Below the pieces are notes generated by a model, which was not told where the DNA came from, searched no databases, and saw only the letters and a list, made by a program, of their open reading frames with translations. Positions 156 to 20,132 of a stretch of 22,547 nucleotides of DNA are shown here, piece by piece (within the stretch, counting starts at the first letter, position 1; every line of letters starts with the position of its first letter). Position numbers and translations under genes: made by a program. This DNA is from a virus, in IMG/VR virus record IMGVR_UViG_3300045988_137427, positions 1-22,547 of that record. One strand, 5' to 3'.

Positions 156-1115
156 ATGAAATTTGATATTGAAAATCGTCTCAAAGACACCGCAATAGTA
201 AATCTAACTGATTTTGAAAACGCCATTGATTTATATGAAGATGGTGAAATCGAAAAGGCATTGGAACTTATGTTTGGATTGACAGTATTAGGATTTGGCG
301 GTGATTTTGAAGCAGAAGATAGAGAAGTGCGCCGTCTACTGCGCAATAGAGCTTATACAGTTGCTAAAAGTAATGAGACTTACTGTAATAAGGTTTAGTC
401 TAAAGAGGCGGGGCAAAGAGCTAAACTCCAATTAGATGATATTGCCGAAATGATGGCCAATGGAGCAACACAACAAATTATAGCGGATACTCTTTGCGTG
501 AGCCTCGATACTATCAAGTATAGAGTAAAAGTGATGAAAGAAAAGTTTCCGTTCCTTTACGCCGAAGGAGTAAAAAAGTGTAAAAAAGTTGGAGTTAGTG
601 TGAGTAATGATAATGATAATGATAATGATAATGAGAAAGAAAATGACAAAGAGAATAGCGCTTCATCATCCTCTTTTACAGAAAGTCAAGGGTGGGAGAC
701 AGTAGAAAAAATGAAAGAGCTCCATCCTTTTGATGCTGCAAATTCAGTAGAAACAAAAGCTGATTTGATGGCTTTCGTTATCGCCTACAAAGGAGAAAAC
801 TTTGCCACTTCGCGCGTAAATCAACAAATCAAAGATACAAAAGTTTCTCCAAAAGATTGCGCCCGCGCCTTGTATTATCTTGACGCAAAGGAAATGAAAG
901 GTAGATTTTGCAAAGGAATAGAGCCTACCCTCTATCTTTGCCTAAAAGATGAAAATATTGTTTCTGCTAACAACTACTTTGAAAAAGAGATTGCTCAAAA
1001 AGAAGCAATTATGCATAGTTTTCAAGTTGCAGAAGAAAACAAAAAAATTATCCGTGTGCCCATTCCTTCATCAAAGAAAAAAACCCCAACATACAACATT
1101 GATGAAATCAATTGA
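156..1115 (+). CDS. Putative regulatory/replication-associated protein with an HTH segment (DUF6291-like N-terminus, from memory); 1 in-frame TAG
   Basis: ATG 156 follows AAGGAAGGG. Track ORFs 105..398 and 450..1115 are both frame 0, separated only by TAG 396-398, with no other stop in 399-449. HTH-like GATQQIIADTLCVSLDTIKYRV. Stop is TGA. The fusion is less certain than for the structural genes. Confidence 0.55.
606..634 (+). repeat. Hexanucleotide tandem repeat (AATGAT) x ~4.8, encoding NDNDNDNDN
   Basis: aatgataatgataatgataatgataatga read directly; in frame within CDS 156..1115. Confidence 0.9.
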
Positions 1116-1136
1116 ACCATATAGGAGGTAAATATA

Positions 1137-1979
1137 ATGTATATTGTCGAAGCCACAAGCAGCGAAAACCGCACAACCCACGGTTCTATGGGTGATTAGA
1201 CAGGCCGCGAAATTTGCGTATCCAACTTCTACTCCTATCCTTGGGATGTAGTGCTCTACTGCAAGGATGATACCTTACGGCGCAAGGCCGCGCAGATAGC
1301 CCAAGAAATAGCTTCCAATCCTTCTTTTGGCTACTCTCAACCTAACCGCTGGACGGGCTACAACTCAATCGTAGCTAATGGTGGTAAAGTTGCGGGCGCG
1401 CAAGGAGATTTTGACTGTAGCTCCTTGGTTATCTCTTGTTATGTTCTTGCGGGGCTTGCTATCCCTACCGGCACAGGCTACACAGGAACTATAGAACAAA
1501 CCTTCTTATCTACCGGTAAATTTGAAGCTCTGCGCGGGCAGCACATCTTAGATTATATGCGCGGGGCTATTGGGTGTATTTATCTGAACACCGCCAATCA
1601 CACAGCAATAGGAATTACTGATGAAGCATTGCGCCCGCGCTACACAACTCCGAGTGCTGCGGCCTCCATCCCATCCATTGATATAAAAGACACTACCGCC
1701 GCGAATTGGGGAGGAAAAATAACCGTCCCCTTAGATACTTGCTCTGTGAAGTTGCCTATGCTTCAAAATGGTAGTGTTGGCCATTCGGTAGCAATGCTCC
1801 AAACTCTACTTCTGGCTAATGGGGGCTCGTTGCCCACTTGTGGCGCTGATGGGGAATATGGTAATGAGACTTCCAACGCTGTGCGCGCGCTACAACAGAG
1901 TAATGGGCTTGACGTTGACGGCATTGTTGGCGCGCAAACCTGGGCTTGTCTGCTTTGGGGTGGAAAGCTCCAATTGTAA
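1137..1979 (+). CDS. Endolysin: cysteine-peptidase-type peptidoglycan hydrolase plus C-terminal PG_binding_1-like domain; 1 in-frame TAG
   Basis: AGGAGG at 1124-1129 then ATG 1137. TAG 1197-1199 (codon 21) is in frame with track ORF 1251..1979. NlpC/P60-like Cys motif GDFDCSSLV and later NHTAIGI. C-terminal GADGEYGNETSNAVRALQQSNGLDVDGIVGAQTW is a typical peptidoglycan-binding repeat. Stop is TAA. Confidence 0.8.
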
Positions 1980-1993
1980 GTTTGGCTCACATT

Positions 1994-2039
1994 GCGCGGG
2001 CTCCATAGATTTTATGAATGGAATTTATCCAGCCCGCGC
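1994..2039 (+). other. Stem-loop after the endolysin gene (GCGCGGGCT ... AGCCCGCGC, with inner TCCAT/ATGGA)
   Basis: 9-bp perfect outer stem at 1994-2002 and 2031-2039. No adjacent T-run, so terminator function is uncertain. Confidence 0.4.
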
Positions 2040-2081
2040 CTTACAATCCAAAAATCAATTTCCAAAATTTATTTTTGAAAA

Positions 2082-2137
2082 TTTCAAAACCCGCACCAAT
2101 TTTTTCTAAAGTGTAGCCTAAAAAATCTACTTATAAG
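2082..2137 (+). promoter_or_regulatory. Repeated ~55-nt element, copy A (TTTCAAAACCCGCACCAA...CTAAA...AAAAATCTACTTATAAG)
   Basis: Aligns by eye with 2366..2420 (TTTCAACCCTGCACCAAA...CTAAA...AAAAATCTACTTATATCC). Preceded by the palindrome TTTTGAAAATTTCAAAA at 2073-2089. Confidence 0.55.
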
Positions 2138-2368: not shown

Positions 2369-2420
2369 CAACCCTGCACCAAATTTATCTAAACCCTATA
2401 CCCAAAAATCTACTTATATC
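2366..2420 (+). promoter_or_regulatory. Repeated ~55-nt element, copy B; candidate late-operon promoter/regulator site upstream of nuclease-TerS-TerL
   Basis: Same core AAAAATCTACTTATAT at 2404-2419. Followed by the hairpin GAGGC..GCCTC and the RBS of the gene starting at 2456. Confidence 0.55.
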
Positions 2421-2911: not shown

Positions 2912-3286
2912 ATGCCGAAAAGTATGAAAGACATTGCAGCAAGGCAAAATGCCTTTCTTGATGCCTATCTCGAAAACCCCACCTTGTCGATGAAAGCTCA
3001 CGCCGAGCGATTAGGTATAAATGTCCGAACCGTATATAATTGGAAAGACAACAACATAAACGGCTTTGCAGATAAACTCCAAGAGCGACTATCCCGCAAG
3101 TGGGAAGAGGCCAAACAAATGGCTTCCGAATAGATGTTTTCTCTTGCTCGTGAAGGAGACTTCAAAGCAGTAAAATACATCCTTGACTACCACGGATACG
3201 CGCCAGCGCAAAAAGTAGAGGCTAAAGTTGATGCTAAAACCGTGATAAATGTATGTATAGGAGACGAACCTACTAATGGAGATTGA
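2912..3286 (+). CDS. terS: Terminase small subunit; 1 in-frame TAG
   Basis: AGGAGGTG then ATG 2912. N-terminal HTH-like segment (LGINVRTVYNW). TAG 3131-3133, then the frame continues as MFSLAREGDFKAVKYILDYHGYAPAQK, a motif typical of small terminases. TGA 3284-3286 overlaps the TerL start. Confidence 0.7.
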
Positions 3287-4514
3287 GCTCAATCTTTCTA
3301 AGGCTCTTTTCTCTCCTAAGCTCTTTCCTTTACTTTTTGACTACTCCCACCGTTGGGAAGTCTACCTTGGTGGCGCGGGTTCTGGTAAGTCTTACTTTAT
3401 AACCCAAAAGCTAATTGTTCGGTGTTTGCGCGAACCTATCAAGGTTCTTGTGTGCCGCCGCTATGCTACAACTATTCGTAATTCTTGCTTTGCGCTTTTC
3501 AAAGAAATCCTATCCAAATGGAAGCTTATGGAGTATGTCAAAATACGAGAAACAGACTTCAACATACGCTTTCCTAATGGTTCAGAAATAGTATTTATTG
3601 GGCTTGATGATGAAACCAAACTGCTTTCTCTAACCAATATATCTACTATATTTATTGAAGAGGTTTATGAAGTCTCTAAAGAAGTAGTAGAACAGCTCAA
3701 TTTGCGTATGAGAGGTAAAGCCAAAAACCAACAAATCCTTATGGCTTTCAACCCCATATCTAAGCACCATTGGCTTTATGATTTTTGCGAAGTGAGCCCG
3801 CCGCAAAGCTTCTATTTTTCTAAAACCACCTATAAGGATAATCCTTTTCTTTCTCCTGCCTACATTCAATCTCTTGAAGAACTCATCCAGCGCAACCCCG
3901 CCAAAGCGCGCATATATACTCAAGGCTTATGGGGTGTGCCTTCCGAAGGGCTTGTCCTCACGAATTGGACAGCAGAACAATTTGACATTCACACTCTTCT
4001 TGAAGCTCGCCAATTAGAACACCGTTGCGGGATGGACTTAGGCTTCGTAGATAAAACCGCAATCATTGATAGTTGGTATGACGCGCCCGCGCGCACAATA
4101 TACATTACAAACGAATTTTACAAATCTGGTTGCCAGCTCTCTGAATTAGCGGATGCAATTACCTCTATGGGGCTTTCCAAATCGAAGCTTTGTGTAGATG
4201 CAGCAGAACCGCGCACAATCCAATTCTTTCGCATTCAAGGTATAAATGCTGTGCCTTGCGCGAAGGGTAAAGACAGCGGGAAAGCCGGGCTTATGTTTCT
4301 GCAAGATAACAAGCTCATTGTTTCTCCGTCTTGCGTGAACCTCATAACCGAGCTGGAAAACTTCTCATACATCAAATCCAAACAAACCGGAGAATACACC
4401 GACGATACCACCCACGAATGGAGCCACGCTATTGATGCTCTGCGTTATGGGTATTCTGATATATACACGAATAAGAAGCTAAAGACGCTTGATAAGAGCG
4501 TTTTAGGGCTGTAA
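3276..4514 (+). CDS. terL: Terminase large subunit (PBSX-like); TAG-free
   Basis: 412 aa uninterrupted. Walker A GGAGSGKS near the N-terminus and a C-terminal nuclease-type region (HAIDALRY). Positioned after terS. Confidence 0.9.
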   Translation: MEIELNLSKALFSPKLFPLLFDYSHRWEVYLGGAGSGKSYFITQKLIVRCLREPIKVLVCRRYATTIRNSCFALFKEILSKWKLMEYVKIRETDFNIRFPNGSEIVFIGLDDETKLLSLTNISTIFIEEVYEVSKEVVEQLNLRMRGKAKNQQILMAFNPISKHHWLYDFCEVSPPQSFYFSKTTYKDNPFLSPAYIQSLEELIQRNPAKARIYTQGLWGVPSEGLVLTNWTAEQFDIHTLLEARQLEHRCGMDLGFVDKTAIIDSWYDAPARTIYITNEFYKSGCQLSELADAITSMGLSKSKLCVDAAEPRTIQFFRIQGINAVPCAKGKDSGKAGLMFLQDNKLIVSPSCVNLITELENFSYIKSKQTGEYTDDTTHEWSHAIDALRYGYSDIYTNKKLKTLDKSVLGL

Positions 4515-4526
4515 GGAGGTAAACCA

Positions 4527-4829
4527 TTGGTAGATTATTTATATGACGTAATCAAAGCCGTAGCCGGTGAAGAATTGCAAATTGCGGCGGTAATTACTGA
4601 TGAGAATGGCGCGGACATTAGTGAGGGTTGTGTGCTTGTTCTGGCTTTTGGACAGCACGCAGAACCACACGCACAATTTGATGGAACATTTACTGCCTCC
4701 AATAAAGGAGGTTTTTGGAGCTTTGTGGTTCCTGCCGCGGCCACAAAGGGAGAACACAAACTTTGGTATAAGGTAATGAAGGATGGAGAGAGTTTGTCTT
4801 TCTATCGGCCTTTGTATTTGGAGGGTTGA
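4527..4829 (+). CDS. Small hypothetical protein, possibly Ig-like/beta-sandwich; TAG-free
   Basis: GGAGG at 4516-4520 then a TTG start at 4527. 100 aa with no recognisable catalytic motif. Confidence 0.5.
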   Translation: MVDYLYDVIKAVAGEELQIAAVITDENGADISEGCVLVLAFGQHAEPHAQFDGTFTASNKGGFWSFVVPAAATKGEHKLWYKVMKDGESLSFYRPLYLEG

Positions 4830-4832: not shown

Positions 4833-5936
4833 ATGCCCGTTGTGCTGAAAGGCAAGAAAGATAATATTGAGATAAAGCCTTTATCAAATTCTATTGAACT
4901 AAAGCCTTCTTCAAGTTCTATTGAATTACAAGTGCCTGTGGGTTCTGGTGCGGTTAGTTCCGTGAACGGACAAACGGGTGATGTAGTTATTGATGTGCCT
5001 TCTAAGGTAAGTGAATTAGAGAATGATGTAGGCTACCTCACCGAGCACCAAAGTTTGGATACTCTCGCCACAAAAGAAGCTCTAAATAATGGGCTGGCCG
5101 CGAAACAAGATAAACTTACTGCGGGTGAAAATATCACCATCCAGAATAATGTGATTAGCGCGAGCGGTGGCGGTGGAAGTTCTTACACATTACCACAAGC
5201 CTCTTATTCAACACTTGGTGGGGTAAAAGTAGTTTCAAATACATCACCATATAATAATTCTGATATAGGTAGAATTACAATTTCTAATGATGGTGTGTTA
5301 TATATAAATGATGAGTTGGATGAATAGCCGAAATATGGCTCTAATGGAAAGTCATATGCTTTACTATTTATTGGAAAAGACATTGAAGGCGGGACTAATC
5401 CTCAACGCCGTGTTCCATATATCAGATAGCAAGGTTGGTATTATCCTCTTCCTTTTCGAGCTGGGACAGCTATAAATATTTCAGATGAAGGGATAATTTC
5501 TGTAGATACAGCGCAAGTCTCTGCTAATAATGGCGTTCCATCTGGGGGCGGCTATCCACAAATACTTATAAAGAATACTGTAAAAGACTATGATACTTCG
5601 TGGAGTTCGCTTCCAGATTTATTGAATTATTATGGTATGAGTAGCGGTAGCGGTAATTGGAACATTACAACATCCATATATGAAGGAAATTTATACAATG
5701 CCAAAGAGGTAGTAATTTTCTGGTAGGACAGTAATTATAACTACCATCAAACATATTTGAATGTTGGTAGTGATTATAACGGTAATAATGGATAGACTTG
5801 GGGAAGTTCAAGTTGGATGAATACTTCTATTTATCTTGATAGTTATGATGAATACAATGGCGCGTATATAACTTATGATGGTAATTTTGTTAGCACTTCC
5901 AACTGCTCAATCAATGCGATATGCTACAAATCCTAA
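4833..5936 (+). CDS. Fibre-like protein (SVNGQTGDV.. / SELENDVGYLT motifs); 4 in-frame TAGs
   Basis: Frame 0 is open from ATG 4833 (GTG 4830 is also possible) to TAA 5934-5936, checked codon by codon. The only interruptions are TAG 5325, 5427, 5724 and 5793. This explains the apparently ORF-free stretch 5328-5951 in the standard-code track. Confidence 0.7.
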
Positions 5937-5951
5937 CCGGAGGAAACCTAA

Positions 5952-6335
5952 ATGATAAAAGTAAACTATGACGCCACTACTGGCAAGGTTCTTTCCTTCG
6001 GCAAAGATACAGAACCCTATATTGAAATTACCGAAGCTGAACGGAAGCAACCTCTCCCAACAAAATACCACTACTATGCCGTAGTAGATGGAAAATTCAA
6101 AATTCTTTCGCGCGCACCTTCACCCGCAGAAACAAAAAACGATACTGCGCGCGCCCTACGTTCTCAAATTGCAACTCTGAAAGCTCAATTAGATGCTACT
6201 GATTATAAAGCTCTAAAGTTTATGGAGGGCTGGCTTACTGCTGACGAATACGCCGAGTGTAAAGCAAACCGCGCAGAGTGGCGCGCGCAAATAAACAAAT
6301 TAGAGGAGGAACTTGCTAATGTTCTTTCTGAATAA
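5952..6335 (+). CDS. Hypothetical protein, possibly a fibre assembly/chaperone-like protein; TAG-free
   Basis: GGAGG then ATG 5952. The C-terminal helical segment (ATLKAQLDATDYKALKFMEGWLTADEYAECKANRAEWRAQINKLEEE) resembles tail-fibre assembly proteins from memory. Confidence 0.5.
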   Translation: MIKVNYDATTGKVLSFGKDTEPYIEITEAERKQPLPTKYHYYAVVDGKFKILSRAPSPAETKNDTARALRSQIATLKAQLDATDYKALKFMEGWLTADEYAECKANRAEWRAQINKLEEELANVLSE

Positions 6336-7647
6336 GGATACAGAACTAACTCCCGCGCTTATCAATAAAATGATGAATTAGTTTATAGTTGCGGTTCGTC
6401 CTACGTTGCGCAATTACAAGAACTACTTCGACGGTAAGCAAGCTATTCTAAATAAGTCATATAACGATGCTTCTAAACCTTGTAATAAGGTTATCACAAA
6501 CTACTGTAGCGATATAGTGAGCTCCTATAACGGATACATTGCTTCTCCGGGCTATATCTCCTACAGTAGCGAAACTCCTATTGATGAGATTATGGAGTGT
6601 TTGAAATATAACGATTACCAAGACGAGGACAGCGATTTTCTAAATGATGCTCTTGTATATGGTGTGGCCGCGGAACTTATGTATATAGATAGTGATGGAA
6701 AAGTGCGTTTCCGTCTTATCAATCCGCTCAACTGTTTTGGTGTGTATGATGATAGTTTGAGTTAGGATTTACTCTACTTTGTAAGATGGTATAAGGCTAA
6801 CGAGTGGGATGAAAGCAACACTTACTTTCTTGATGCCTACAGTAATATTACTGTGCGCCATTATAAAATGAGTGGAGAGAATGGTGGACTTGTTTTTCTT
6901 TCCGAAGAGCCCCATTACTTCAATCAATGCCCGGCCAATATCTTCTATTTGGATAAAGATGAGCGCAATATTTTTGATTGTATTTTGAGCCTTCAAGATG
7001 CATACAACGAAATCCTCTCTGGTGAGATTGATGATTATGATGCTTTTTGTGATGCCTACCTTTCCATTACCGGATGCGACGCCGAGACGGATGATATTAT
7101 TTCTATGAAAGAAAACCGCGTCTTGGTTCTTCCGGAGGGAGCTGCCGCGGAATGGCTTACCAAAAACGCGAATGATGCACAAGTTGAAAATATCCTCAAG
7201 CGCATTCACGATAGTATCTACCGCATTGCAAAATGCCCCGACTTTTCCAGTGAGACATTTGTAGGCGGGGTAAGCTCTGGCGTGGCTATCCGCTACCGCC
7301 TTACCGGTTGTGAGACGAAGGCCGCAGCCATTGAGAGTAATATGAAGAAAGCGCTCCAACGCCGTATTGAGCTTATTGCGGGCGTCGCTTCTCTAAAGCT
7401 TGGCGAAGAGGTTTTCCGCGATATTTCTATTACATTTACGCGCAATATTCCTTCTGATAATAGCGACATTCTCAACACAGTCAAGGGACTACAAGGCGTA
7501 GTAAGTGATAAAACATTACTTGGTATGATACCTCAAGTGAGTGATGTAGATAAGGAATTAGAGGCTATTACCGAAGAGAAACAGAAGAAGATGGAACTCT
7601 ATTCTTTCGCGCCAACCAATACACCTGATGATGGTGATGAGGAATGA
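6319..7647 (+). CDS. Portal protein (SPP1 gp6-like); 2 in-frame TAGs
   Basis: GAGGAGGA then ATG 6319. TAG 6379-6381 (codon 21) and TAG 6763-6765 join track ORFs 6406..6765 and 6853..7647, all in frame 1. N-terminus ...YKNYFDGKQAI... is typical of portals. Acidic C-terminus. Stop is TGA. Confidence 0.85.
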
Positions 7648-8900
7648 GCCAAACAGAAGAATATTGGATTGAGCGTATACGCCGGGCGCAAGAAAAGCAA
7701 GCCACGCAATCTATAACCGAGCTTCAAAAAGAGTTGAATATTTACTACTCTAAAGCTATGCGACGGCTCATAAAACAATTTGAAGCTACCTATGAAAAGC
7801 TACTGCGTCAAACTGCGGAGGGTATAACGCCTTCTGTAGCGGATTTATATAAATTAGATACCTACTGGAAGCTTCAAGGCGCTTTACGCTTAGAGCTTCA
7901 AAAACTTGGCGATAAGCAAGAAGTATTGTTCTCTAAGAAATTTGAAGAAGCCTATGAACATATTTGGAAGTCTATTTCTCTCCCATCACAATCAGCATTC
8001 ACCCAACCAAGTATTGAGAATGCTAACCAACTTATCAATTCTATTTGGTGTGCAGATGGAAAGAATTGGAGCGCCCGTGTTTGGGGCAACATTGATAAGC
8101 TCCAAGAAAGCTTGAATGATGCTCTTGTTGATTGCGTGATTACCGGCAAAAAAACAACCGAACTAAAACATATGCTTATGGAAGAGTTTGGTGTTGGATA
8201 CAATCGCGCGGACACCATAGCCCGCACAGAAATAGCCCACATTCAGACGCAAACAGCGCGAGAACGCTATAAAAACTATGGCATTTAGAAAGTGAAAATT
8301 GTGGCTGATAAATCAAGTAGGACGTGCCCGCAATGCGCCGAGCTGGATGGGAAGGAATATCCCATTGATGCTACTATGCCCGTTCCCGTTCATCCGCGTT
8401 GCCGGTGTTGTATTGTGCCCGTAATGGATTTGACTTCACAGAAAGAAGATAGTAGACTACAAGAAAAGCCGAAAGAAAAACCACGGCGCACAAGAGCAAT
8501 GTCTGTTCCGTCTCATAGCAAAACAATCCGCGTAGAACCGCCTGATATTGTCCAGCGGGCTATTGATAAGGTGAAGGAGCTATAGAAGAGTGGAGAACCG
8601 CTGCACTTCTATAAACGAACAAAGAGACATTAGAACCACGCGGAAGAACTCACCGGCCTAACCGGAGATGAAGCGTGGCAGAAGTATGAAGAAATGGCCG
8701 ATGCCTTTATGAAAAAAGACATTGACGGAAAGGATATGGAGGGCTTTATGAGTAGTATGGATTGGCTCTTCAAGTTTGAACATTCTTCCGGGCGAATAGG
8801 TATATTGAGCGATAAAGGAACAATATCAACTCTATTTGTGCCCGATAAGCAATCACCAGAAGAATATTGGAAGGAACAAATAAATGAATACGGAAAATAA
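7644..8900 (+). CDS. Head morphogenesis protein (MuF / SPP1 gp7 family) with an extra ~105-aa C-terminal domain; 3 in-frame TAGs
   Basis: ATG 7644 overlaps the portal stop. Frame 0 is continuous through TAG 8286, 8583 and 8631 to TAA 8898-8900, joining track ORFs 7644..8288, 8292..8585 and 8694..8900. MuF signature RTCPQCAELDGKEYPID...HPRCRCCIVP. No RBS before ATG 8694. Confidence 0.75.
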
Positions 8901-9096
8901 TAAGAAAAACCCTGCTATTCGTCCCTGCCCGGTTTGCGGAAAGTATATCTTCAAAGAACCTTATGAAGATTGCCCTGTTTGTGGGTGGGAGAATGATGTT
9001 GTCCAAGAGAAATGGCTAACAGTTGGCGGGTGTGCAAATGTAATGTCCCTTGAGGAATGCCGTAAGGCATATGCCGAGGGAAAAGAATTTTTCTAA
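8884..9096 (+). CDS. CPCC-family cysteine-rich (zinc-ribbon-like) protein; TAG-free
   Basis: CPVCGKY...CPVCGWENDVVQ...GGCANVMSLEECRKAY matches the remembered CPCC family pattern. Overlaps the 3' end of the MuF gene by 17 nt. Confidence 0.7.
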   Translation: MNTENNKKNPAIRPCPVCGKYIFKEPYEDCPVCGWENDVVQEKWLTVGGCANVMSLEECRKAYAEGKEFF

Positions 9097-9135: not shown

Positions 9136-9230
9136 TTCTATATATGTCGCTTTGGGGGTTCAGACACTAAACGAACAATCAAATAATGGGGTTGCGGGCT
9201 TCCCGCAAAATCATAACGGAGGAATACATA

Positions 9231-9812
9231 ATGGATAACGAAAATAAAGGTATGGAAAATAACCAGTAGGGGCAGGGCGCGGAAAACAATCCGAGCACTG
9301 AACCAGAGGCTAAGACATATACCCAAGAAGAGGTTCTCCGCCTCTTACAGAGTGAGAGCGACAAGCGAGTAAATCAAGCTCTCGCAAAGCAAAAGAAAGA
9401 ATACGAGAAGAAGCTTTCCTTGACTTCTCTTGATGAGCAACAGCGTAAAGACGCGGAAGCTCAAATGCGTATTGAAGAGCTCCAAAGCCAGCTCGCGCAA
9501 TTCCAGATTGAAAAGAATAAGAGTGAGTTGAAGTCTGTTCTTTCAAGCAGAGGATTGAGCGCGGAATTTGCCGATATTATTTCTATCGGTGAGGATATTA
9601 CGGAAGCTCAAACAAATATTGATACATTGGATAGACTTTTCAAGGCGGCGGTAAAGGCCGAGGTAGAAAAGCGACTTGCGGGAAATACTCCCAAGGGCAA
9701 CTCTTCTTCTAACGGCGAGATTACAAAAGATGTCGTAAAGAAAATGTCTATGGCTGAATTGAATAAGTTGGCTATTGAACAGCCAGAAATATTTTCCAAG
9801 TTTTTTGGATAA
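9231..9812 (+). CDS. Scaffolding protein (DUF4355-like); 1 in-frame TAG
   Basis: GGAGGA then ATG 9231. TAG 9267-9269 (codon 13) is in frame with track ORF 9420..9812. Charged coiled-coil composition and a position immediately upstream of the major capsid gene. Confidence 0.65.
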
Positions 9813-10702: not shown

Positions 10703-10996
10703 ATGATTGATGAAGTGAAAATTTTGCTTGGCGCGGGCGCGGAAAATTTCTCTGACGCGGAGATTGGGCTTGCTCTCAAAATGGCGATTGCTGAAGTAGA
10801 GGATTACTGCCGCAGAGACTTGGATTATTCTCTTGAACTCATTGCCGAGCGTATTGCGGTTATCAAACTCAACCGTATGGGCGCGGAGGGTTTATCTGCT
10901 TATAATGCGGGAAGCGTAAGTGAAAGCTACATTGACGGATACCCCGCCGATATTCTTGCTACACTCAACGCTAAGCGCAAGTTGAAGGTGTTGTGA
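10703..10996 (+). CDS. Head-tail connector / DNA-packaging (gp6-like) protein; TAG-free
   Basis: AGGAGG then ATG 10703. 97 aa. Call rests on position after the capsid gene and typical size and N-terminal pattern. Confidence 0.6.
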   Translation: MIDEVKILLGAGAENFSDAEIGLALKMAIAEVEDYCRRDLDYSLELIAERIAVIKLNRMGAEGLSAYNAGSVSESYIDGYPADILATLNAKRKLKVL

Positions 10997-10997
10997 G

Positions 10998-11279
10998 ATG
11001 CGGCAGCACTTTAGAGAATACACCTATAAGACATTTGGCGCATAGGACGCTTACGGCCAGCCAGCTCTTTCCGATACATCCGCAAAAATCCATATGGCAG
11101 TTAGCCTTCTCAATACTCAACTCACAGACAATATACTCTACAAGGATGCTCAATACTTGGGTATCACAACTGAACCAATAGATGATAAATGCGTTGTGCT
11201 CTATGGTGAGGAAACGTTGAAAGTGCTCTATGTGGTGAAGGGCAGATATAACCAAGTATATATGGCGCGTCAAAAATGA
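10998..11279 (+). CDS. Head closure / head-tail adaptor protein; 1 in-frame TAG
   Basis: ATG 10998 lies just after the preceding TGA. TAG 11043-11045 (codon 16) is in frame with track ORF 11094..11279. Call rests on size and synteny. Confidence 0.55.
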
Positions 11280-11698
11280 GTATTGAAATTCAAGGAGCGG
11301 ACGAACTGCTTGCCAAGTTCTCCAAGATGGAGGATGGCGCAACCATACGAAAAGGAATGTAGCAGGCTTGCGTATTGGTAGAGACAAGCGCAAAAGAAAC
11401 GGCTCCAATAGATAGTGGTGCTTTACGTCGCAGTATTACAAGCCGTATAGAGGACGGCGGCGCCACTATCGAAGGTATAGTATATACACCCTTAGAGTAT
11501 GCGCCTTATGTTGAGTATGGAACAGGGCTTTTTGCCGAAGGAGGCAATGGCCGAAAAACACCGTGGGCTTATAGGGATGATGAAGGGAAATTACATTTTA
11601 CCCACGGCCAGCACCCACACCCATATATGCGCCCGGCGCTATCCGATAACCGCAATCAAATTACACAGCTATTAGGGGAGGGTATAACGAATGATTGA
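11276..11698 (+). CDS. HK97 gp10-like tail-joining protein; 1 in-frame TAG
   Basis: ATGA overlap with the previous gene. TAG 11360-11362 (codon 29) is in frame with track ORF 11375..11698. Motif AKETAPIDSGALRRSI is typical of the gp10 family. Confidence 0.7.
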
Positions 11699-12041
11699 TT
11701 TTCATTCTAAAATGGTTGAAGCTCTCCAAAAAACCGGCTTACCAGTTCACTATGAAATGACGCTGCACAGCGGGCTTTCAACGCCTTGTGTGAGCTATAT
11801 GGAACTGTCCAATGTTGCCGCCGAAGAGGGCGACACACTTGGCTATAGCCGTATCCAATACCAAGTAAAGGTATGGGGTGAACGAATTGCCGATTTACAA
11901 CGCTATGCGCTCCAAATTGATGAGCTGTTGAGGCCGTTAGGCTTCAAGCGCATTAGTTGTGGAGAGCTGTATGATATGAATAGTTCTATGATTTAGAAGA
12001 TTATGGGTTATGAGGCTTTAGCCCTCGAACCTTTTGAATAA
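11691..12041 (+). CDS. Tail completion/terminator-like protein; 1 in-frame TAG near the 3' end
   Basis: Track ORF 11691..11996 ends in TAG 11994-11996. The frame continues for 14 codons to TAA 12039-12041, which abuts the RBS of the next gene. Confidence 0.55.
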
Positions 12042-12055
12042 TGGAGGTAGATTTT

Positions 12056-12445
12056 ATGGCTACAATTTCCAAGGGTATCAAATTATCCTATAAGGAAGCG
12101 AGTGGAAGCGAATATACCGAACTTACCAACTTGCAGGAAATTCCTGATTTGGGTGGCGAAGCGGAAGCTATTGAAATTACCGTTCTTTCGGACGCCGCGC
12201 ATATGTATACCGATGGTATCTTGAACTATGGCGATAGTCTTGCGTTCAAGTTCCTTTATGATAAGACACAGTTCACCACGCTCAATGGCCTTAGCGGTTC
12301 AATCTCTTGGAAGGTTGAGCTTCCTGATGGTGCTACTTGCTCCTTCACCGGCACTTCCAGCGTAAAGTTGGATAGCGTTGGCGTGAATGCTGCTCTTACT
12401 TATGAATTGAGTATCAAGCCCAATTCCGCTATGGCTTGGGCATAA
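12056..12445 (+). CDS. Major tail protein; TAG-free
   Basis: GGAGG at 12043-12047 then ATG 12056. 129 aa, beta-rich. Position before the chaperone and tape measure genes, with a strong terminator hairpin after it. Confidence 0.7.
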   Translation: MATISKGIKLSYKEASGSEYTELTNLQEIPDLGGEAEAIEITVLSDAAHMYTDGILNYGDSLAFKFLYDKTQFTTLNGLSGSISWKVELPDGATCSFTGTSSVKLDSVGVNAALTYELSIKPNSAMAWA

Positions 12446-12458
12446 TTCCCATATGGGG

Positions 12459-12498
12459 AGTTGGGGGAGGTTCCTTTCTCCCCCTCCCCCAACTTTTT
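12459..12498 (+). terminator. Rho-independent terminator-like hairpin AGTTGGGGGAG...CTCCCCCAACT + TTTTT
   Basis: 11-bp perfect stem at 12459-12469 and 12484-12494, followed by a T5 run. Confidence 0.7.
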
Positions 12499-12517
12499 AT
12501 AAATGGAGGAAAAATAA

Positions 12518-12856
12518 ATGCTGTATGTTGATTTTAGCGCGGGTGGGCGTGATTATAAATTACGCTTGAACACCCGTAATATCGTAATGCTTGAGAAGTA
12601 GATTGGATGTAATCCTATTGCTATTTTTGGAGATGGGGATACATTACCAACTATTACCTCTATGGTTGCTATTCTCTACGCGAGCCTTCAATACTTCCAT
12701 CACGGGGTTGGGCTGAATGAAGCCTATGATATTTATGATGATTATATTGGTGATGGACATAGCGCAAGCGACTTTATCAAGGTAATTCTTGAGGTTTATA
12801 AGGTTTCTGGTTTGCTTCCCGCTGACGCCAGCACCGAGGAAGCCGAAAAAAACTAA
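12518..12856 (+). CDS. Tail assembly chaperone (G-like); 1 in-frame TAG
   Basis: GGAGG then ATG 12518. TAG 12599-12601 (codon 28) is in frame with track ORF 12662..12856. N-terminus GGRDYKLRLNTRNIVMLEK[TAG]IGCNP matches the usual chaperone pattern. Stop is TAA at 12854-12856. Confidence 0.75.
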
Positions 12857-13263
12857 TGGAAGGGGGCTCGCAAAATGTAGCCCCCTTTCTTTACACAGAT
12901 AAGATAGTTGAGTTGTTAGATAAGGCTCTTGATTGGGGTATTGGGGAATTTGACTTTTGGAATATGACGCTCACCGAATTGGAGCGCTTGCTCAAAAGTA
13001 AACAGCGCAGACAAAAGAACGAACTTCAAGAAAAAGCTTTCTTTGACTACAGACTTGCTCAACTGATAGGCGTTAGTGTAGGGCGCATATATGATAGTAA
13101 GTGCTCTCTGCCCTCTTTGGAAGATGCCTATCCAACTATTTTTGACAGAGAAAAATTACAAGAGGAAAAGCAAGCTCAAACAGATGAGTTATCTGCTTTG
13201 AGATTTAGATAGTTCGCGCATACCTATAATATGAAATATGGAGGGGATGCGAATAATGAATGA
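12518..13263 (+). CDS. Tail assembly chaperone -1 frameshift product (G-T-like); additional in-frame TAG in the extension
   Basis: Frame 2 shifts to frame 1 at 12847-12853. The -1 frame is open to TAG 13210-13212 and then for 16 more codons to TGA 13261-13263, overlapping the tape measure start. Confidence 0.6.
12847..12853 (+). promoter_or_regulatory. -1 programmed ribosomal frameshift slippery heptamer A_AAA_AAC
   Basis: The zero-frame codons are gaa aaa aac taa. The -1 frame then reads aaa aaa cta atg into track ORF 12856..13212. Hairpin GGGGGCT..AGCCCCC starts at 12863, about 9 nt downstream of the slippery heptamer. Confidence 0.7.
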
Positions 13264-15337
13264 AGAATTGAAAGTTATTATAAAGGCCGAAATTGCCCAA
13301 TTCAAACAAGGAATAGAGTAGGCTAAAAGCTCCATTCAAGGCTTCAAAGCAAAAGTAAATTCAATGAAAGGCGAAGCCGATAAAGTCATAAAGAAAATGG
13401 GTAAATCCTTCGCAGACTTGGGAAAGAAAATTGCAAAGGCGTTCGTTGCCGGATGTGCGGCGGCGGGTGCTGCGGTTTTAGCTCTTGGTAAGAAAGCGCT
13501 AAGTGCTTATAGCGATTATGAACAGTTAGTTGGCGGTATTGATATGCTATTCAAAGAGAATAGCCAAACCGTTCAAGCCTACGCGCGCGACGCTTACAAA
13601 AACCAATAGATGAGCGCTAATCAGTATATGGAAATGGCTACCTCATTTAGTGCTGGCCTCATTGCGAGCGTTGGCGGCGATACTGCCAAGGCCGCGCAAA
13701 TCGCAGATATGGCTATTACAGATATGGCCGACAATGCGAACCGTATGGGTAGCACTATGGAAAGCATTCAAAACGCTTACCAAGGTTTTGCAAAATAGAA
13801 TTATACAATGCTCGATAACCTCAAATTAGGCTATGGTGGCACAAAGCAAGAAATGGAACGTTTACTTGCCGACGCTACAAAGCTCACAGGTATCAAGTAT
13901 GATATAAATAATCTTTCAGACGTATATGAGGCAATCCACGCCATTCAGACAGAAATGGGCATTACCGGCGCGACAGCAGACGAGGCCGCGAAAACAATTC
14001 AAGGCTCTGTTGCTATGATGAAAGCCGCGTGGACAAACTGGCTTGTTGGCTTGATGGATGATAACGCCGATATTGGGCAGCTCACCAAGGATTTGATTAG
14101 TTCTGTAGGGACTGTAATTGATAATATCAAGCCAAGAGTAAAGCAATTCTTCCAGAGTTTTGTAGAGGGTGTCCACACCGCATTAGAGCCCTACCCCGCA
14201 CTTCAAGCAATGTTTGACGGAATTGTGAACGCGCTACAAACTGTATAGAATACAGTAAGCGCTGTGGTGGGTTTTGTCGTGCAAAATTGGGCAACACTTC
14301 AACCCATTCTTATAGCCGTTGCCGCGGTTATTGGCGTAATTGTCGCCGCCGTAGCGATGTATAACGCGGTTGCCGCTATAAAGCTTGCTATGGATGCCGC
14401 GCAAGTAGCTACTTTGGGAGCACTCGCCGCAGCTACTTGGGCAGCTCTCGCGCCATACTTGCTTATCGCCGCAGCCATTGCCGCGCTCATTGCAATTATT
14501 GTTCTTTGCATTACTCATTGGGACGCTATCAAAGCGAAAGTAAGCGAAGTATGCGCCGCGATTGCTAACTTTGTTTCAAGTATGGTTGGCAAGGTAAAAG
14601 AGTGGTTTGGCAATATGAAATCTGCCATTTCTGAAAAGGTTGATGCTATAAAGGCAGAAGCAAGTGAAAAATGGGCTACCATCAAAGGCGTAATTACCAA
14701 TGCTGTCGCCGCAGCCAAAGAGCAGACACAAGCTCACCTTTCCGCTATGAAGTAGGCTTATGAAGAAAATGGCGGCGGTATCAAGGGTATTGTTGCCGCG
14801 TTAGGCGCTGGATTGAAGAGTATCTTTTCAAGTGCATATGCTTCTATTGATGCTCTAACAGGTGGTAAACTTTCTGCTATCCGTGATAAGTTCAGTAATA
14901 TTCTTGGACAAGCCCGTGATAAGGTGAAGGGTATTATTGATAAAATCAAGAGCTTCTTCAATTTCAATTGGAGCTTGCCGCACTTGAAGATGCCTCATAT
15001 CTCTATTTCCGGTAGTTTTAGTCTCTCCCCGCCGAGCGTGCCCAGGTTCGCAATTAGTTGGTATGCGCGCGGCGGTGTGTTCGATGCGCCTACTCTGTTC
15101 AACTATGGGAATGGTGCTCTTGGAGGATTAGGCGAGCACGGCGCGGAAGCGGTTGTCCCTCTGGAAAACAATACCGAATGGCTTGATAAAATTGCCGAAC
15201 GTCTTGCCGCAGGAATGGGTGGAAGTAATACACCTATTGTTCTCCAAGTAGACGGAAAGACATTTGCAGAAATTAGTGTTGATAGTATCAACGCGCTTAC
15301 ACGTCAACGCGGTAGTCTTGGAATAAATCTTGTGTAA
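13256..15337 (+). CDS. Tail tape measure protein; 5 in-frame TAGs
   Basis: GGAGGGG then ATG 13256. Five track ORFs (13364, 13610, 13808, 14264, 14813) are all in frame 2, joined only by TAG 13319, 13607, 13796, 14246 and 14753. Conserved tape-measure motif YQGFAK[TAG]NYTMLDNLKLGYGGTKQEMERLL. Hydrophobic Ala-rich central segment. Stop is TAA. Confidence 0.9.
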
Positions 15338-15349: not shown

Positions 15350-15703
15350 ATGGCTTATTTTCAAATTGGCTCACACGACTATAGCGCTTATACAAGCTCG
15401 TTGAAAGTTGGATATACCGTGAATTATACTTCTCAAACTAACGCCTCTTATAATTCCGTAGTTGATTATCACAACACAAAGACAACGGTAGAGGTAGAGG
15501 TTATTCCATTGGATGATGAAACAATGAAGTAGTTGCTCACGGATATAAAATCGTTCTCTATAACGATTTTTTACCGTGAGCCTCAAACGGGGACTTTTGC
15601 GGAACTTCCTGTTGTATGTTCCTCGTATAATACGGACTACTATACCATTCAGCAAAGCAACGTAAAGTATAAGAAAATGAAACTCAAATTTACTCAACTG
15701 TAA
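15350..15703 (+). CDS. Small tail component (distal-tail-like position); 1 in-frame TAG
   Basis: GGAGGGG then ATG 15350. TAG 15530-15532, then 56 further open codons to TAA 15701-15703, checked codon by codon. Confidence 0.55.
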
Positions 15704-15715: not shown

Positions 15716-17326
15716 ATGCTAACAACTACAACCGCATATAATACCGCTATTAGTGCGTCTGTCCGCAAAATCAAAGCCAAAGCAGAGTTCTATCAAGGCT
15801 CTGCTTTGGTAGATACCTATACTGATGAGGACAGAATAATTTCCTTTGATATTTAGCGCATAGGTGATGATGGTAAGTTTTTTGGCTTTGGTGTATGCCA
15901 GCGCCTCAATATCCATCTAATAGATAAAGATAGAGAGTTAGCCTACTCAACAGCTAACTCTATCAAAATTGGAATAAGCCCTCGCCTTGTGAGTGATGAG
16001 GTTGAAACGGAATACATTACCTATCCCACGTTCTATGTTTCCGAAATCCACCGAGACGAAAAGACGAATGAGCTTTCTATTACGGCCTATGATGCGATTT
16101 ACCCAGCGGCCGCGCATACAGTTAGTGAACTTGTGGTTGAGAAGCCATACACTACAGCTCAATTTGCAGCGGCCTGTGCTACTCTTTTAGGCGTCGGCAT
16201 TACCGGCACAGATAGCTTTACCGTTTCCTATGAGAATGGCGCGAACTTCGACGGCACAGAGACAATAAGAGAAGCGCTTGATTATTTAGCCGAAGCTACA
16301 CAAACAATCTATTTTATCAACTCTACGGGGACTTTGTGCTTCAAGCAACTAAACAAAGAAGGAAATGCAGTATTAGCAATCTCTAAGGATATTTATTTTG
16401 AATTTAGTAGTGGAAGCGGAAAGCGCCTTTAGACAATTTGCAGCGCTACAGAATTAGGTGATAATGTCAGCGAAAGCACTACACAAATAGGCTCTACACA
16501 ATATGTAAGAGATAATCCTTTTTGGGAACTGCGCGACGATATAGCAACTCTAATTCATAATGGAATTGAGGTAATTGGTAATATAACGATTGATGTATTT
16601 TCGTGTAGCTGGCGCGGAAATCCTGCATTAGAAGTAGGAGATAAGCTTACACTACAAACAAGAGATAATCAAACAATTACCTCTTATGTTCTCAATGATA
16701 AGATTGAATATAATGGCGCACTAAAAGAAACAACTCAATGGAAGTATAACGAGACTTCCGCAGAAACCGAAAGCAATCCCACGAGTATAGGCGACGCTAT
16801 AAAATAGACGTATGCGCGCGTCGATAAATAGAAAAAGCAAATTGACTTGGTAGCGAGTAAAACCGATGAGCTGGAAAGTAAAAACTCCGCTCTCCAAATT
16901 GCTACGGATAAAATCTCTATGGAAGTCAAAGAGAGCAAGCAAACGACAAAAGAAAGTTTGGATGCTCTCAACTCATCTATTCAAGAAGTTCAAAATAGTG
17001 TAAAGACTTCAATCAGCGCATAGGATGTTCAAATCCAGATTGAGAACTCTCTAAAGAATATCAATAGCGTTTCCACTACTACAGGCTTCAAGTTTGATGA
17101 AAACGGCCTCCAAATTTCAAAGACAGATAGCGATATTTCTACTATCGTCAATGAAGATGGTATGAAAATTGAAAGTGGAAGCACGGTATTACTCGATGTA
17201 AATAATACTGGTGTAGATGCTATCAACCTCTTTGCGTCTCAATATCTGCGTATTGGAAACACTCGCTTTGAGGATTATTCAAATAATACGCGCACGGGCG
17301 CTTTTTGGGTAGGAGGGAATAACTAA
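15716..17326 (+). CDS. Tail tip / minor structural protein with coiled coil and a conserved C-terminal ...RFEDY..RTGAFWVG module; 5 in-frame TAGs
   Basis: GGAGGG then ATG 15716. Frame 2 is open to TAA 17324-17326, checked codon by codon. The only interruptions are TAG 15854, 16430, 16805, 16829 and 17021. This fills the ORF-poor stretch 16433-17325. Confidence 0.75.
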
Positions 17327-18978
17327 TGGCTACAAGTTGCAGTATTGGCCTTGTTGACGGCGGTAGGTATCCGCTAAATACCGGAACACTTTATGCTTCT
17401 CGGTGTAATTATGAAGCGTCGCTTTCTTATTCCCAAGTAATCAAGGATGATGGAAAATATATTCGTGTAGTTATCAGCGGAAATTATAGCGTGAGCTATC
17501 ACCAATTATCCGGCTACACAATGAAAGCGCCTAACAATTATTCTTTTATTGTTTAGGATGTAAGTAGCAACCGATATGATAGCGCCGAGCACTCCATTGT
17601 AAATGGTTCTTATGTATATGAGTATAAGTATAATGTGCTATCTGCGCTAAATTTCAAATATCGTATCTATGCGTGGTGTCAATGTGTCCCGCAGTATGTA
17701 GGTAAAGAACAAACAGAATATCTTGAATGTGTTCCATCTACTACTATCGGTGTAAGCGCTATCTCTGCGGTTGGCGCGGATATTGGTAAGACTGTAAATA
17801 TCAATATTGTTGCTATGGATGATAGCTACACCAATAATCTCTCCTACAAAGTGGGAGAAACTATTACCACTATTGCGGAAGGTATTGGCGGCGGCACTGT
17901 TCAATGGACTATTCCCACTTCTCTATTCAATTCATTAGGAGCTACAGATAAGAGTATTCCTATTCGCCTCATTGTTGAGACGTTTGCTTCTAATGGTGTG
18001 AGCTTAGGGCAAGATATAGTAGATATTGCGGGCTATGCTTCGGAAGCTGATTGTAAGCCGACGCTGAACCCCGTATTCACCATTACGAACCCTCAAACCG
18101 CGCTCACAGGCAACAGCTCAACAGCAATTGTGGGGTATGATACGGTTTCAGTAGCCATAAATCCGCAAACAAAATATAATGCTACGCGCAAAGTGCTATC
18201 TGCGAAGCACGGCAGCGTAATAGTGGAGAATAGCACCACTCCAACATTCAATGTTGTAAATGATAGCTTCCAATTTTCTATTACGGATAGCCGTGGATAT
18301 TCTACTACCCAAACCGCCACTATTCCGTTGGTGTAGTGGTTCAAGCCGACAATCTCAATGACGGCAACAAATCCAGATGCAACCACCAACAAAAGCACTA
18401 TCACCATCAAAGGCACATTCTTCAATTCAACCTTTGGCGCTGAAAATAATACCGTAGCTATCAAAGTTCGTTGGAAAGAGGGAAATGGAACATACAGCGA
18501 TTGGGTAGACGCAACAGCTACAATCAAAAATAATTCCGTGAACGCTACCTATGAGGCGACACTTGATTATACAAAGCAATGGACTATTCAAGCTTCAATT
18601 ACAGACAAGCTCACCACCGTCCTCTCCAAAGAAGCTATAGTCATTACCCTACCGGTGTTCGATTGGAGCAAGTCAGACTTCAACTTCAATGTGCCGGTTG
18701 TTGTTCAAAACACTTGGAATGGACTTATGACAAAATCTCCAAATGGAATGTTGAGTGGTTTGCGCGCCGAAAATACTACTACTGGAAATGCTATGTTTGT
18801 AGGATATGAAAGTGATGGTATAACACACGGAATATATTCCTATGCACAAGATACTTGGCTAATTCAAAGTGATGGAACTAACTGCTATATATGTGGTGAT
18901 AAGGTTCGTAAAATTTCCTCTGGAACGTCTGAACCTTCCGGTGGCTCTGATGGGGATATTTATTTCAAATATTCATAA
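17326..18978 (+). CDS. Tail fibre / receptor-binding candidate (DUF859-like by memory); 2 in-frame TAGs
   Basis: ATG 17326 overlaps the previous TAA. Track ORFs 17326..17556, 17635..18336 and 18358..18978 are all in frame 1, joined by TAG 17554 and 18334. Confidence 0.7.
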
Positions 18979-18990
18979 GAGGTGAGATGA

Positions 18991-19890
18991 ATGGGAACTT
19001 GGACAACAACAGCCCCAACTCTTCCTTCTGGTGCATAGTGGCTACAAGGTAAAACAATAGCTGGTAGTTCAAACCATTGGACAATAAGTGGCACTATTTA
19101 TATTGCCTCGATGGGCTCCAACCAATTTGCCGTGCGTATGGCGATGTGGAACGGAAATGGCTCATATGGAACTTACTATCCTCCAAGTAAGTGGAATTTG
19201 ACTTGCCAAGGTAATACAACTACCCAATTCTCTGTATCAAAAGGAAGATAGACTTTTTACTATATTGGGGAAGCAACCGCGGGCACATCAATTACCACGT
19301 CCTTCAATCAAGGTGATAGTGCAATCGCGCAACAAAAGGTAGTTTAGACTGTCCCAACTGGACAAGAGCCTAAAGCCATTTGGACAAACTCCGCTCCAAC
19401 TCTCCCACAAGATAGCGCCTATGAGCAAAATAAAACTTTTTCCGGTGGTTCAAACCATTGGGCAATGAGCGGTAGCGCTTCTATTGCACGTTTAGATGGA
19501 AATCAATTTGTTATAAAATTAGTTGCAACAAGCTCTAACGGCTCGTATGGAACTTATTATGCCCCAAATGATTGGATGTTGCGTTGTGATGTTGGAGATA
19601 GCGTAGGTGGATGGGATACTTCTTTTAGTATGACTAAAGGAACATCTACATATTACTATATTGGAGAAGCTTCACCCAATACTACTATCAAAGTATACGT
19701 CAACGGTGCTGGTGGAACTGGAAGCGCTGTAGCAACGCAAACTATGACTTTTACCGCGCCAGCCTCCTTAGCAATTTTGGTATATGTGAATGTAAATGGA
19801 ACTTGGAAACAGGCTACTCCTTGGGTGAATATAGGGGGAACTTGGAAACAAGTTGTTCCGTATATAAATAATGCGGGCACTTGGAAATAA
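18991..19890 (+). CDS. Tail-associated protein with an internal ~125-aa duplication and C-terminal GTWK repeats; 3 in-frame TAGs
   Basis: GAGGTGA then ATG 18991. Frame 1 is open to TAA, with TAG 19036, 19249 and 19345. Repeats are GTWTTTAPTLPSGA..SSNHWTISG..GSYGTYYPPSKW..FYYIGEA versus IWTNSAPTLPQDSA..GSNHWAMSG..GSYGTYYAPNDW..YYYIGEA. Confidence 0.7.
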
Positions 19891-19907
19891 ACGATGGAGG
19901 TAATCTA

Positions 19908-20132
19908 ATGGACTTTCAACCGATTGTTGAAGTAGTGCTACAGTAGGGTATTTGGTGTGCCCTCTTTGTATGGCTCTTCTACATCAATAAGAAAGAAGCT
20001 ACCGCGCGCGAGGAACGTTTGAACGGCATTGTGGATGAGCAGAAAGAAACACTAAAGGAAATCTCTCAATCTCTCATTCTACTCAATGAGCGCATTGAGA
20101 AGGTAGAAGAGAAAATTTTAGGCAATGACTAA
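19908..20132 (+). CDS. BhlA/UviB-family holin-like protein; 1 in-frame TAG
   Basis: GGAGG then ATG 19908. TAG 19944-19946 is codon 13. VVLQ[TAG]GIWCALFVWLFYINKKE followed by a charged helix matches the remembered BhlA pattern (..TQGPFAVLFCWLLFY..). Stop is TAA. Confidence 0.7.

Follow-up and report, generated by a model that had tools for sequence, protein, structure and literature searches.

A complete 22.5-kb temperate gut phage whose late genes appear to read UAG as glutamine, probably with a decoder supplied from outside the genome

What does the codon TAG stand for in a small phage genome in which it interrupts most genes of one long operon, and what reads it? This question is raised by the virus record IMGVR_UViG_3300045988_137427 of IMG/VR, positions 1 to 22,547. 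This whole stretch of DNA, 22,547 bp long and with a G+C content of 42.6%, was analysed and will be referred to as the window in the following. An initial annotation had proposed that TAG is reassigned genome-wide to a sense codon, most likely glutamine (Gln). Judged by comparison with related sequences, UAG as a sense codon read as Gln is strongly supported in the late operon of the window. The finding is accurate and its interpretation right, and the phage is of a kind that was already described in 2021/22. Regarded as a whole, the window very probably represents a complete, small, temperate siphovirus-type phage of gut Clostridia, in whose late operon UAG would mean Gln and whose decoder would be supplied externally.

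The first 75 nucleotides of the window (1-75) are an identical copy of the last 75 (22473-22547). This direct terminal repeat of 75 bp means that the genome is complete, either circular or circularly permuted, and that one unit measures 22,472 bp. Genes were called with TAA and TGA as the sole stops, which gave 29 genes. On the + strand, 26 of them are arranged head-to-tail over 156-20132; the remaining three are a gene for 65 amino acids (aa) at 21716-21913 (+), the integrase gene at 20167-21138 (-) and a gene for 114 aa at 21962-22306 (-). Altogether, 39 in-frame TAGs are spread over 20 of the 29 genes. The initial count of 39 TAGs in 19 of 28 genes was therefore right in the number of TAGs, and its gene figures had to be replaced. 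Not included in the count are the TAGs at 2114 and 2264, which lie inside a poorly conserved spacer open reading frame (ORF, 2018-2392), and the TAG at 3258, which lies upstream of the real start of the large terminase (TerL), as homologues align only from codon 8/9.

Several properties of the genes speak for TAG as a sense codon. As had been noted at the outset, the breaks are always TAG; an in-frame TAA or TGA was never found, and all 29 genes stop at TAA or TGA, none at TAG. A Shine-Dalgarno-like motif was detected before 16 of 25 gene starts. For the potential restarts, taken as the nearest in-frame start codon beyond each TAG, the figure is only 1 of 39. With TAG as sense, 91.7% of the window is coding versus 35.7% when each gene is stopped at its first TAG, and a much smaller gain is obtained if TGA or TAA is taken as sense instead. 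Pfam domains span the TAGs in the portal (SPP1_portal, 29-427), the Mu F-like protein (Phage_Mu_F, 157-257) and the endolysin (ELLD, 4-162). The stretch 5328-5951, empty under the standard code, is indeed filled by a gene for 368 aa that reads through its TAGs. In the case of the tape measure gene, which had been described as five fragments, there are actually five TAGs and six fragments. The term genome-wide applies across the late operon and not strictly beyond that: no TAG occurs in the integrase, in the 114-aa lysogeny-module gene or in five small genes of the late operon, a pattern that Borges et al. described for recoded prophages (10.1101/2021.08.26.457843). Among the TAG-free genes are those at 4527-4829, 8884-9096 and 21716-21913.

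The genes do look fragmented under the standard code, and the TAGs could in principle be true stops in a decaying prophage, or artefacts of sequencing or assembly. This can be judged from the population of the phage. An exact look-up of the integrase returned at least 15 contigs. They come from human gut metagenomes that are independent of each other, from the UK, from Peru, from the Hadza and from several Sequence Read Archive runs. Nine of these integrase-bearing contigs fall into the 20-50 kb class and none above it; two are 100% identical to the window, and the rest are 93-95% identical and keep the TAGs. Independent assemblies of the same genome measure 21.9-22.6 kb. In the same-lineage variants, variable sites were counted by codon position (1/2/3): beyond the first TAG of each gene they number 176/119/777, and before it or in TAG-free genes 64/42/348. 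This like third-position bias on both sides means that purifying selection persists past the TAGs, which excludes pseudogenes and assembly artefacts. Decay or artefact is further contradicted by interruption through TAG alone and never TAA or TGA, by the retention of the TAGs in independent assemblies from several continents, by the repeated recovery of a circular unit of about 22.5 kb, and by the purging of TAG from gene ends (0 of 139 in the same-lineage variants). We consider this explanation to have next to no probability.

Public gene calls for the loci L029-L038 are full-length, with a tape measure of 693 aa and a portal of 442 aa, which indicates that a TAG-sense model was already used by that gene caller. 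Thus, virus-aware gene callers already translate this genome at full length.

To which residue TAG corresponds was judged from relatives. A portal-based scan of IMG/VR gave one near-identical fragment and 26 relatives with portals 42-78% identical; none of the 26 has an in-frame TAG, and they were accordingly taken to use the standard code. In the alignments with these relatives, Gln stands opposite the TAGs of the window in 146 of 388 aligned cells (37%). The background of Gln is 3.8%; where the window has a genuine Gln, these alignments give a conservation of 42%. Under an empirical substitution model, the log-likelihood is -900.8 for Gln and -1208.8 for the next best residue, Glu. Gln was also best with a non-redundant subset of relatives and in four of five single-relative tests. 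It is the commonest residue, alone or tied, at 14 of the 28 TAG sites with data, and near-pure Gln columns were found at 16805 (11/11), 13210 (14/16) and 11994 (16/21). Two of the three motifs that had been put forward in favour of Gln held: the endolysin motif GD[TAG]TGRE (TAG 1197) stands opposite GDQTGTE in two distant standard-code homologues, and at the tape measure motif relatives have Gln in 9 of 13 cases. The holin motif failed, as a BhlA holin of Paenibacillus has Thr there.

Changes within the lineage give a second line of evidence. Between the window and its same-lineage variants, 15 differences between TAG and another codon occur at 14 sites, among them seven TAG/CAG, one TAG/CAA, one TAG/TGG and two TAG/GAG or GAA; TGG is the other sense codon that lies one transition from TAG. 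At position 8286, in the Mu F-like gene, four same-lineage variants have CAG. Altogether, the reading of TAG as Gln follows from the residues of the relatives, the TAG/CAG polymorphism, the endolysin homologues, the selection past TAGs and the lack of TAG stops.

These same data bear on the possibility that TAG is sense but stands for something else, either pyrrolysine (Pyl) in a Pyl-decoding host or a near-cognate mixture of Gln, Lys, Tyr and Trp. Pyl would be undetectable by alignment, half of the sites are variable and aligned to K, E, D, N, G or T, and the single TGG and the two GAG/GAA polymorphisms could be taken in its favour. Against it stand the likelihood, by far best for Gln, with 37% at TAG sites against 42% at true Gln, the columns at 16805, 13210 and 11994 that are almost all Gln, the 8 of 15 lineage changes to CAG or CAA against one to TGG, and the fact that Tyr is never aligned to TAG in the relatives. 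A residue other than Gln is therefore very improbable.

Over 156-20132, the Gln codons comprise 39 TAG, 45 CAG and 184 CAA, so that TAG makes up 39 of 268. The genes of this stretch form a full small-siphovirus set (Pfam, PHROG and precomputed annotations), which includes connector and tail-completion proteins, a major tail protein and a Cys-rich protein of 70 aa. An SPP1/HK97-type morphogenesis module is present according to Pfam and PHROG, with Terminase_3 TerL, SPP1-type portal, Mu F-like protein, HK97 gp10-like protein, Phage_connect_1, Phage_tail_3 and tape measure. The features are as follows:

156-1115, +: helix-turn-helix (HTH) protein of 319 aa, first gene of the long rightward operon, TAG at 396; its HTH match (phrog_3855) is weak
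1137-1979, +: endolysin (ELLD and PG_binding_1), TAG at 1197, within the ELLD domain
2456-2899, +: conserved phage protein of 147 aa, TAGs at 2504 and 2780
2912-3286, +: small terminase-like HTH protein, TAG at 3131
3276-4514, +: large terminase (Terminase_3 / 3C), TAG-free from its homologue-based start, stop TAA
4830-5936, +: variable protein of 368 aa, TAGs at 5325, 5427, 5724 and 5793
5952-6335, +: TAG-free protein of 127 aa
6319-7647, +: SPP1-type portal of 442 aa, TAGs at 6379 and 6763
7644-8900, +: Mu F-like head morphogenesis protein, TAGs at 8286, 8583 and 8631
9186-9812, +: scaffold, TAG at 9267
9828-10646, +: major capsid protein, TAGs at 10080 and 10236
10703-13263, +: head-tail connector, tail-completion, major tail and chaperone genes, TAGs at 11043, 11360, 11994, 12599 and 13210; the genes at 10703-10996 and 12041-12445 are TAG-free
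13256-15337, +: tape measure protein of 693 aa, TAGs at 13319, 13607, 13796, 14246 and 14753
15350-15703, 15716-17326, 17326-18978 and 18991-19890, +: distal tail, tail and fibre genes, TAGs at 15530, 15854, 16430, 16805, 16829, 17021, 17554, 18334, 19036, 19249 and 19345
19908-20132, +: BhlA-type holin of 74 aa (PF10960), last gene of the recoded operon, TAG at 19944
20136-20161, no strand assigned: bidirectional terminator-like hairpin with a stem of 11 bp, between the convergent holin and integrase genes

Beyond the hairpin lies the lysogeny module:

20167-21138, -: tyrosine integrase of 323 aa (PF00589), no TAG, stop TAA
21295-21360, -: attP-like 5' half of a tRNA-Thr(CGU), found with the Rfam tRNA model and limited to the 5' strand of the acceptor, the D arm and the anticodon arm
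21962-22306, -: TAG-free lysogeny-module gene for 114 aa, whose homologues always adjoin the integrase in similar small phages

Without TAG and with a TAA stop, the integrase is translatable under the standard code. Its Gln codons are 0 TAG, 8 CAG and 1 CAA, so the CAG/CAA preference is inverted between the integrase (8/1) and the late operon (45/184). This is consistent with many late-gene CAG codons having turned into TAG, or with a separate origin of the integrase. By its position only, the 114-aa gene may encode a repressor.

We read the tRNA-Thr(CGU) half as the putative phage attachment site (attP). A block of 18 nucleotides, GCAGCTGATTCGTAATCA, is common to this half and to the full tRNA-Thr(CGU) flanking a related TAG-recoded locus (L068), and the upstream leader of the half also resembles that of the L068-flanking tRNA. 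Upstream of the half, which spans 21360-21320 in this view, lies a promoter-like site, TTGACA-17-TAAATT with TG (21483-21455, -), and after it a hairpin of 16 bp with a T-run (21293-21257, -). It seems that the phage-borne promoter and 5' half would rebuild an expressed tRNA-Thr upon integration in the anticodon-arm region. The usual arrangement is the opposite, with the phage carrying the 3' part of the tRNA. Regarding the host, relatives with portals 63-67% identical sit in contigs of metagenome-assembled genomes (MAGs) of Oscillospiraceae, Faecousia and Clostridia, one of them 211 kb long. Judged from these relatives, the host would most likely belong to the gut Clostridia, and there most likely to the Oscillospiraceae.

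A megablast search of GenBank phages with the full window as query gave no match, and a tblastn with TerL against the same phages found only distant Bacillus and Clostridium siphoviruses, the best below 42% identity. When the portal scan was widened, standard-code, TAG-recoded and TGA-recoded members all turned up within the family. In a neighbour-joining tree of portals, each recoded type forms at least five separate groups, and the lineage of the window is nested among standard-code phages. The TGA-recoded loci (L051-L053, L061, L065, L067, L072-L074, L083-L085, L088 and L094) contain several TGAs in frame but not a single TAG; TGA is presumably read as Trp in them. They are interleaved on the tree with standard-code and TAG-recoded members.

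The closest standard-code phages, the sisters L002-L005, have portals 75-78% identical and no in-frame TAG. They share the gene order from small terminase to tail, the avoidance of CTAG and the lack of TAG stops with the window, and differ from it in having mostly CAA or CAG where the window has TAG. Among about 17 orthologues in each sister, no gene ends in TAG, only in TAA and TGA. In the standard-code relatives overall, a TAG stop occurs in 28 of 332 cases (8%), notably at the end of TerL, which ends in TAG in 18 of 29 relatives versus TAA in the window. The sisters look like a 'TAG-unassigned' intermediate state, and this fits a depletion of TAG stops before the reassignment. As a part of the best explanation, the lineage would thus have arisen recently from standard-code ancestors that were already without TAG stops.

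A phage of this kind can be compared to published ones. Borges et al. (bioRxiv 10.1101/2021.08.26.457843; Nat Microbiol 2022) described eight clades of alternatively coded gut phages, in which repeated code switches separate close relatives. One of them, Topaz, is TAG-recoded, has a mean genome of 22±3 kb, carries its structural and lysis genes as one recoded unit and includes close standard-code relatives within the same clade (10.1101/2021.08.26.457843). A curated Topaz prophage of 23,706 bp lies in an Oscillospiraceae genome between the integrase and a host tRNA-Thr, and standard-code Oscillospiraceae flanks surround a Topaz prophage; circular free copies come from gut metagenomes of non-Western humans and animals (10.1101/2021.08.26.457843). 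In a later Dutch cohort study, 18 viral operational taxonomic units were assigned to Topaz. The window resembles Topaz in TAG as Gln within a contiguous structural and lysis unit, in size (22,472 bp against 22±3 kb), in its recurrent circular genomes, in the TAG-free integrase, in the putative attachment at tRNA-Thr (here a tRNA-Thr(CGU) half beside the integrase gene) and, judged from its relatives, most likely in an Oscillospiraceae host; it differs in that no suppressor tRNA was found in its genome. By these shared descriptive features it matches a Topaz-type phage, the clade itself being defined by a TerL tree (bootstrap of at least 95%). The compactness that had been called unusual for a recoded temperate phage of 22.5 kb was consequently already published as Topaz, at 22±3 kb.

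In the mechanism that we propose for the window, the rightward operon 156-20132 would carry the regulatory, lysis, packaging, head and tail genes, with UAG read there as Gln. In an uninduced standard-code host, release factor 1 (RF1) would truncate nearly every late protein, so that recoding would keep the lytic programme locked at the level of translation, as Borges et al. proposed in their model. Being TAG-free, the integrase and the lysogeny-module gene could be made by the standard-code host. The lock would open once UAG decoding becomes available.

Such a lock presupposes a standard-code host, and the host itself might instead read TAG as sense, with the phage mirroring its code. For this it could be said that the phage encodes no decoder and that its lineage has never been seen joined to host DNA. 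Nevertheless, to our knowledge no bacterium with TAG as Gln has been described. The integrase and the lysogeny-module gene are TAG-free, and the nearest relatives, from the same MAG taxa, use the standard code. In Topaz, the prophage flanks are standard-code and integrases avoid in-frame TAG clade-wide (p=1e-16; 10.1101/2021.08.26.457843). A recoded host is hence a far-fetched explanation.

What, then, would read UAG? No tRNA was found by ARAGORN at default thresholds in the linear and circularised genome, or with Rfam at E<=1 over the full window. In 21139-21961, where Rfam was run more permissively (E<=10), nothing but the partial tRNA-Thr fragment came up. A custom scan for anticodon arms detected no intergenic hairpin with a CUA anticodon. 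Neither a release factor nor an aminoacyl-tRNA synthetase is among the genes according to Pfam, PHROG and precomputed annotations. With no tRNA, release factor or synthetase encoded, the decoder should come from outside the genome. Several candidates were rejected. At lowered thresholds, ARAGORN gave dozens of matches inside genes that are spurious, including a 'tRNA-Pyl(cta)' that falls within the tape measure gene. Another of them, a 'tRNA-Thr' with an intron of 967 nt, was pieced together from the real tRNA-Thr half and a part of the integrase gene, its supposed 3' half being without an acceptor complement. Rfam matches to T-box (634-803), Termite-leu, CRISPR-DR33 and others were far below gathering scores and were treated as chance.

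The likeliest decoder would be a Gln-accepting tRNA(CUA) that is charged by host enzymes and encoded either in the host genome or on an element that resides in the same cell or co-infects it; we regard this as about an even matter, the source being entirely inferred. In E. coli, supE-type tRNA-Gln(CUA) reads UAG as Gln, and amber-mutant phages grow only with such a suppressor. Amber suppression by supE is a functional analogue in that a tRNA with a CUA anticodon is accepted by the Gln-charging system of the host. It differs in that the ambers there are of the laboratory, while here 39 fixed, conserved and CAG-polymorphic natural ambers occur and no suppressor was found in the genome.

The main alternative would be a phage-encoded factor other than a tRNA, such as a small protein or RNA, that disables or outcompetes RF1, whereupon the near-cognate host tRNA-Gln(CUG) would read UAG through a first-position U·G pair. 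This would suit a complete genome without tRNA, release factor or synthetase, and likewise a family in which none of about 19 sampled TAG-recoded relatives has a tRNA(CUA) and none of 14 TGA-recoded relatives has a tRNA of any kind by ARAGORN, and which has switched repeatedly to TAG or to TGA. In natural suppression, near-cognate host tRNAs would insert Gln at UAG and Trp at UGA, so the residues Gln and Trp are the expected ones. Borges et al. left the mechanism in tRNA-less genomes open and allowed for novel molecules (10.1101/2021.08.26.457843). On the other hand, no candidate gene was identified for this factor. Few TAG-free genes are confined to recoded lineages: the 114-aa gene belongs to the lysogeny module, and the 127-aa gene (5952-6335) has a counterpart in a standard-code relative. 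The base after TAG is distributed as after CAA, with no sign of selection for weak termination, and near-cognate reading of five TAGs per gene would need an almost complete loss of RF1. A non-tRNA factor is thus unlikely, if still worth considering. Rather unlikely, too, is its more specific form, in which an RF1-neutralising switch is carried by the phage and the TAG/TGA flips of the family are swaps between RF1- and RF2-directed versions.

Two genes were considered as code-change genes and found not convincing: the gene at 5952-6335 because of its occurrence in a standard-code relative, and the 114-aa gene because it has only unannotated homologues, in lysogeny modules.

A number of points weigh against the explanation by Gln and an external decoder. 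The Gln assignment is inferred from alignments and polymorphism; half of the TAG sites with data are variable, with K, E, D, N, G or T in the relatives, and the holin TAG is aligned to Thr in a distant homologue. That the integrase has no TAG does not reach significance in one genome, as about 1.3 TAGs would be expected among its nine Gln codons. No contig above 50 kb occurs among the integrase matches and none joins the lineage to host DNA. That the sampled TAG-recoded relatives are without tRNA(CUA) weakens a supply by sibling phages. Finally, the first gene of the late operon contains a TAG, which argues against a simple code switch made early by the phage on its own.

In Borges et al., a suppressor tRNA was detectable in only about 40% of TAG-recoded genomes, with at least one such genome per clade (10.1101/2021.08.26.457843). 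The window offers a clean minimal test case here, as a complete genome of 22.5 kb with 29 genes, 39 ambers, no translation component and standard-code sisters. It is suited to the question of what decodes the reassigned stop where a suppressor tRNA is not detectable, as in roughly 60% of recoded phages.

Other recoded phages are less similar. Garnet, a group of Prevotella prophages (10.1101/2021.08.26.457843), is likewise temperate, TAG-recoded, 24-34 kb in size, and has a TAG-free integrase and a tRNA-gene site; it differs in its Bacteroidota host, its tRNA-Met site and its terminase clade. With the crAss-like and Lak code-15 phages (Ivanova 2014; Yutin 2021; Peters et al. 2022, PMC9523058), the window shares late genes with TAG as Gln, the gut and, presumably, standard-code hosts. 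In the case of crAss-like phages, TAG as Gln was validated by metaproteomics. These phages are virulent, 100-660 kb in size and infect Bacteroidota, and usually have their own suppressor tRNA and sometimes RF2, whereas the phage of the window is temperate, 22.5 kb long, of Firmicutes and without a translation component.

Some further features of the genome were observed. The 127-aa protein (5952-6335) is 61-65% identical in L066, L076, L078 and L080-L082, whose portals are only 42-43% identical, while its identity to the protein of L008, a standard-code relative, is 72%. These values suggest that the gene is exchanged horizontally, possibly with the variable gene upstream of it; that the two travel together is a guess. 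The lysis genes lie apart, the endolysin being the second gene of the operon and the holin the last, 18 kb downstream; on the circular genome, the distance between them across the lysogeny module is about 3.5 kb.

In the HTH protein (156-1115), codons about 150-170 form a low-complexity run rich in Asn, Asp and Glu, NDNDNDNDNEKENDKEN, which the T-box match at 634-803 overlaps. In the variant L033, two shorter ORFs (150 and 161 aa) take the place of this gene. The 476 bp between the endolysin and the 147-aa gene (1980-2455) hold no credible gene and are 87% conserved versus 94-95% in the neighbours. Neither an RNA family nor a tRNA-like fold was detected there, and our guess is a packaging site or an internal promoter. 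The ORF 2018-2392 was rejected as a gene, since its translation is of low complexity and without homologues, its conservation is 87% and it lies outside all public gene calls.

Certain palindromes of 4 bp do not occur at all in the window: CATG (57 expected), CTAG (75.5), GATC (53), GTAC (71) and TTAA (81). Others are near expectation, with observed/expected counts of 168/173 for AATT, 121/118 for AGCT and 169/161 for GCGC; GAATTC and GATATC are also absent from the whole genome. This is an extreme avoidance of restriction sites. Because CTAG is avoided genome-wide, none of the 39 in-frame TAGs follows a C. An artefact of base modification or miscalling, which the lack of TAG after C might have suggested, was ruled out, as CTAG avoidance is common to the standard-code sisters. 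CTAG occurs 0-1 times in the sisters L002-L004 and at expectation in L006-L012, and its avoidance in L002-L004 indicates that it predates the recoding.

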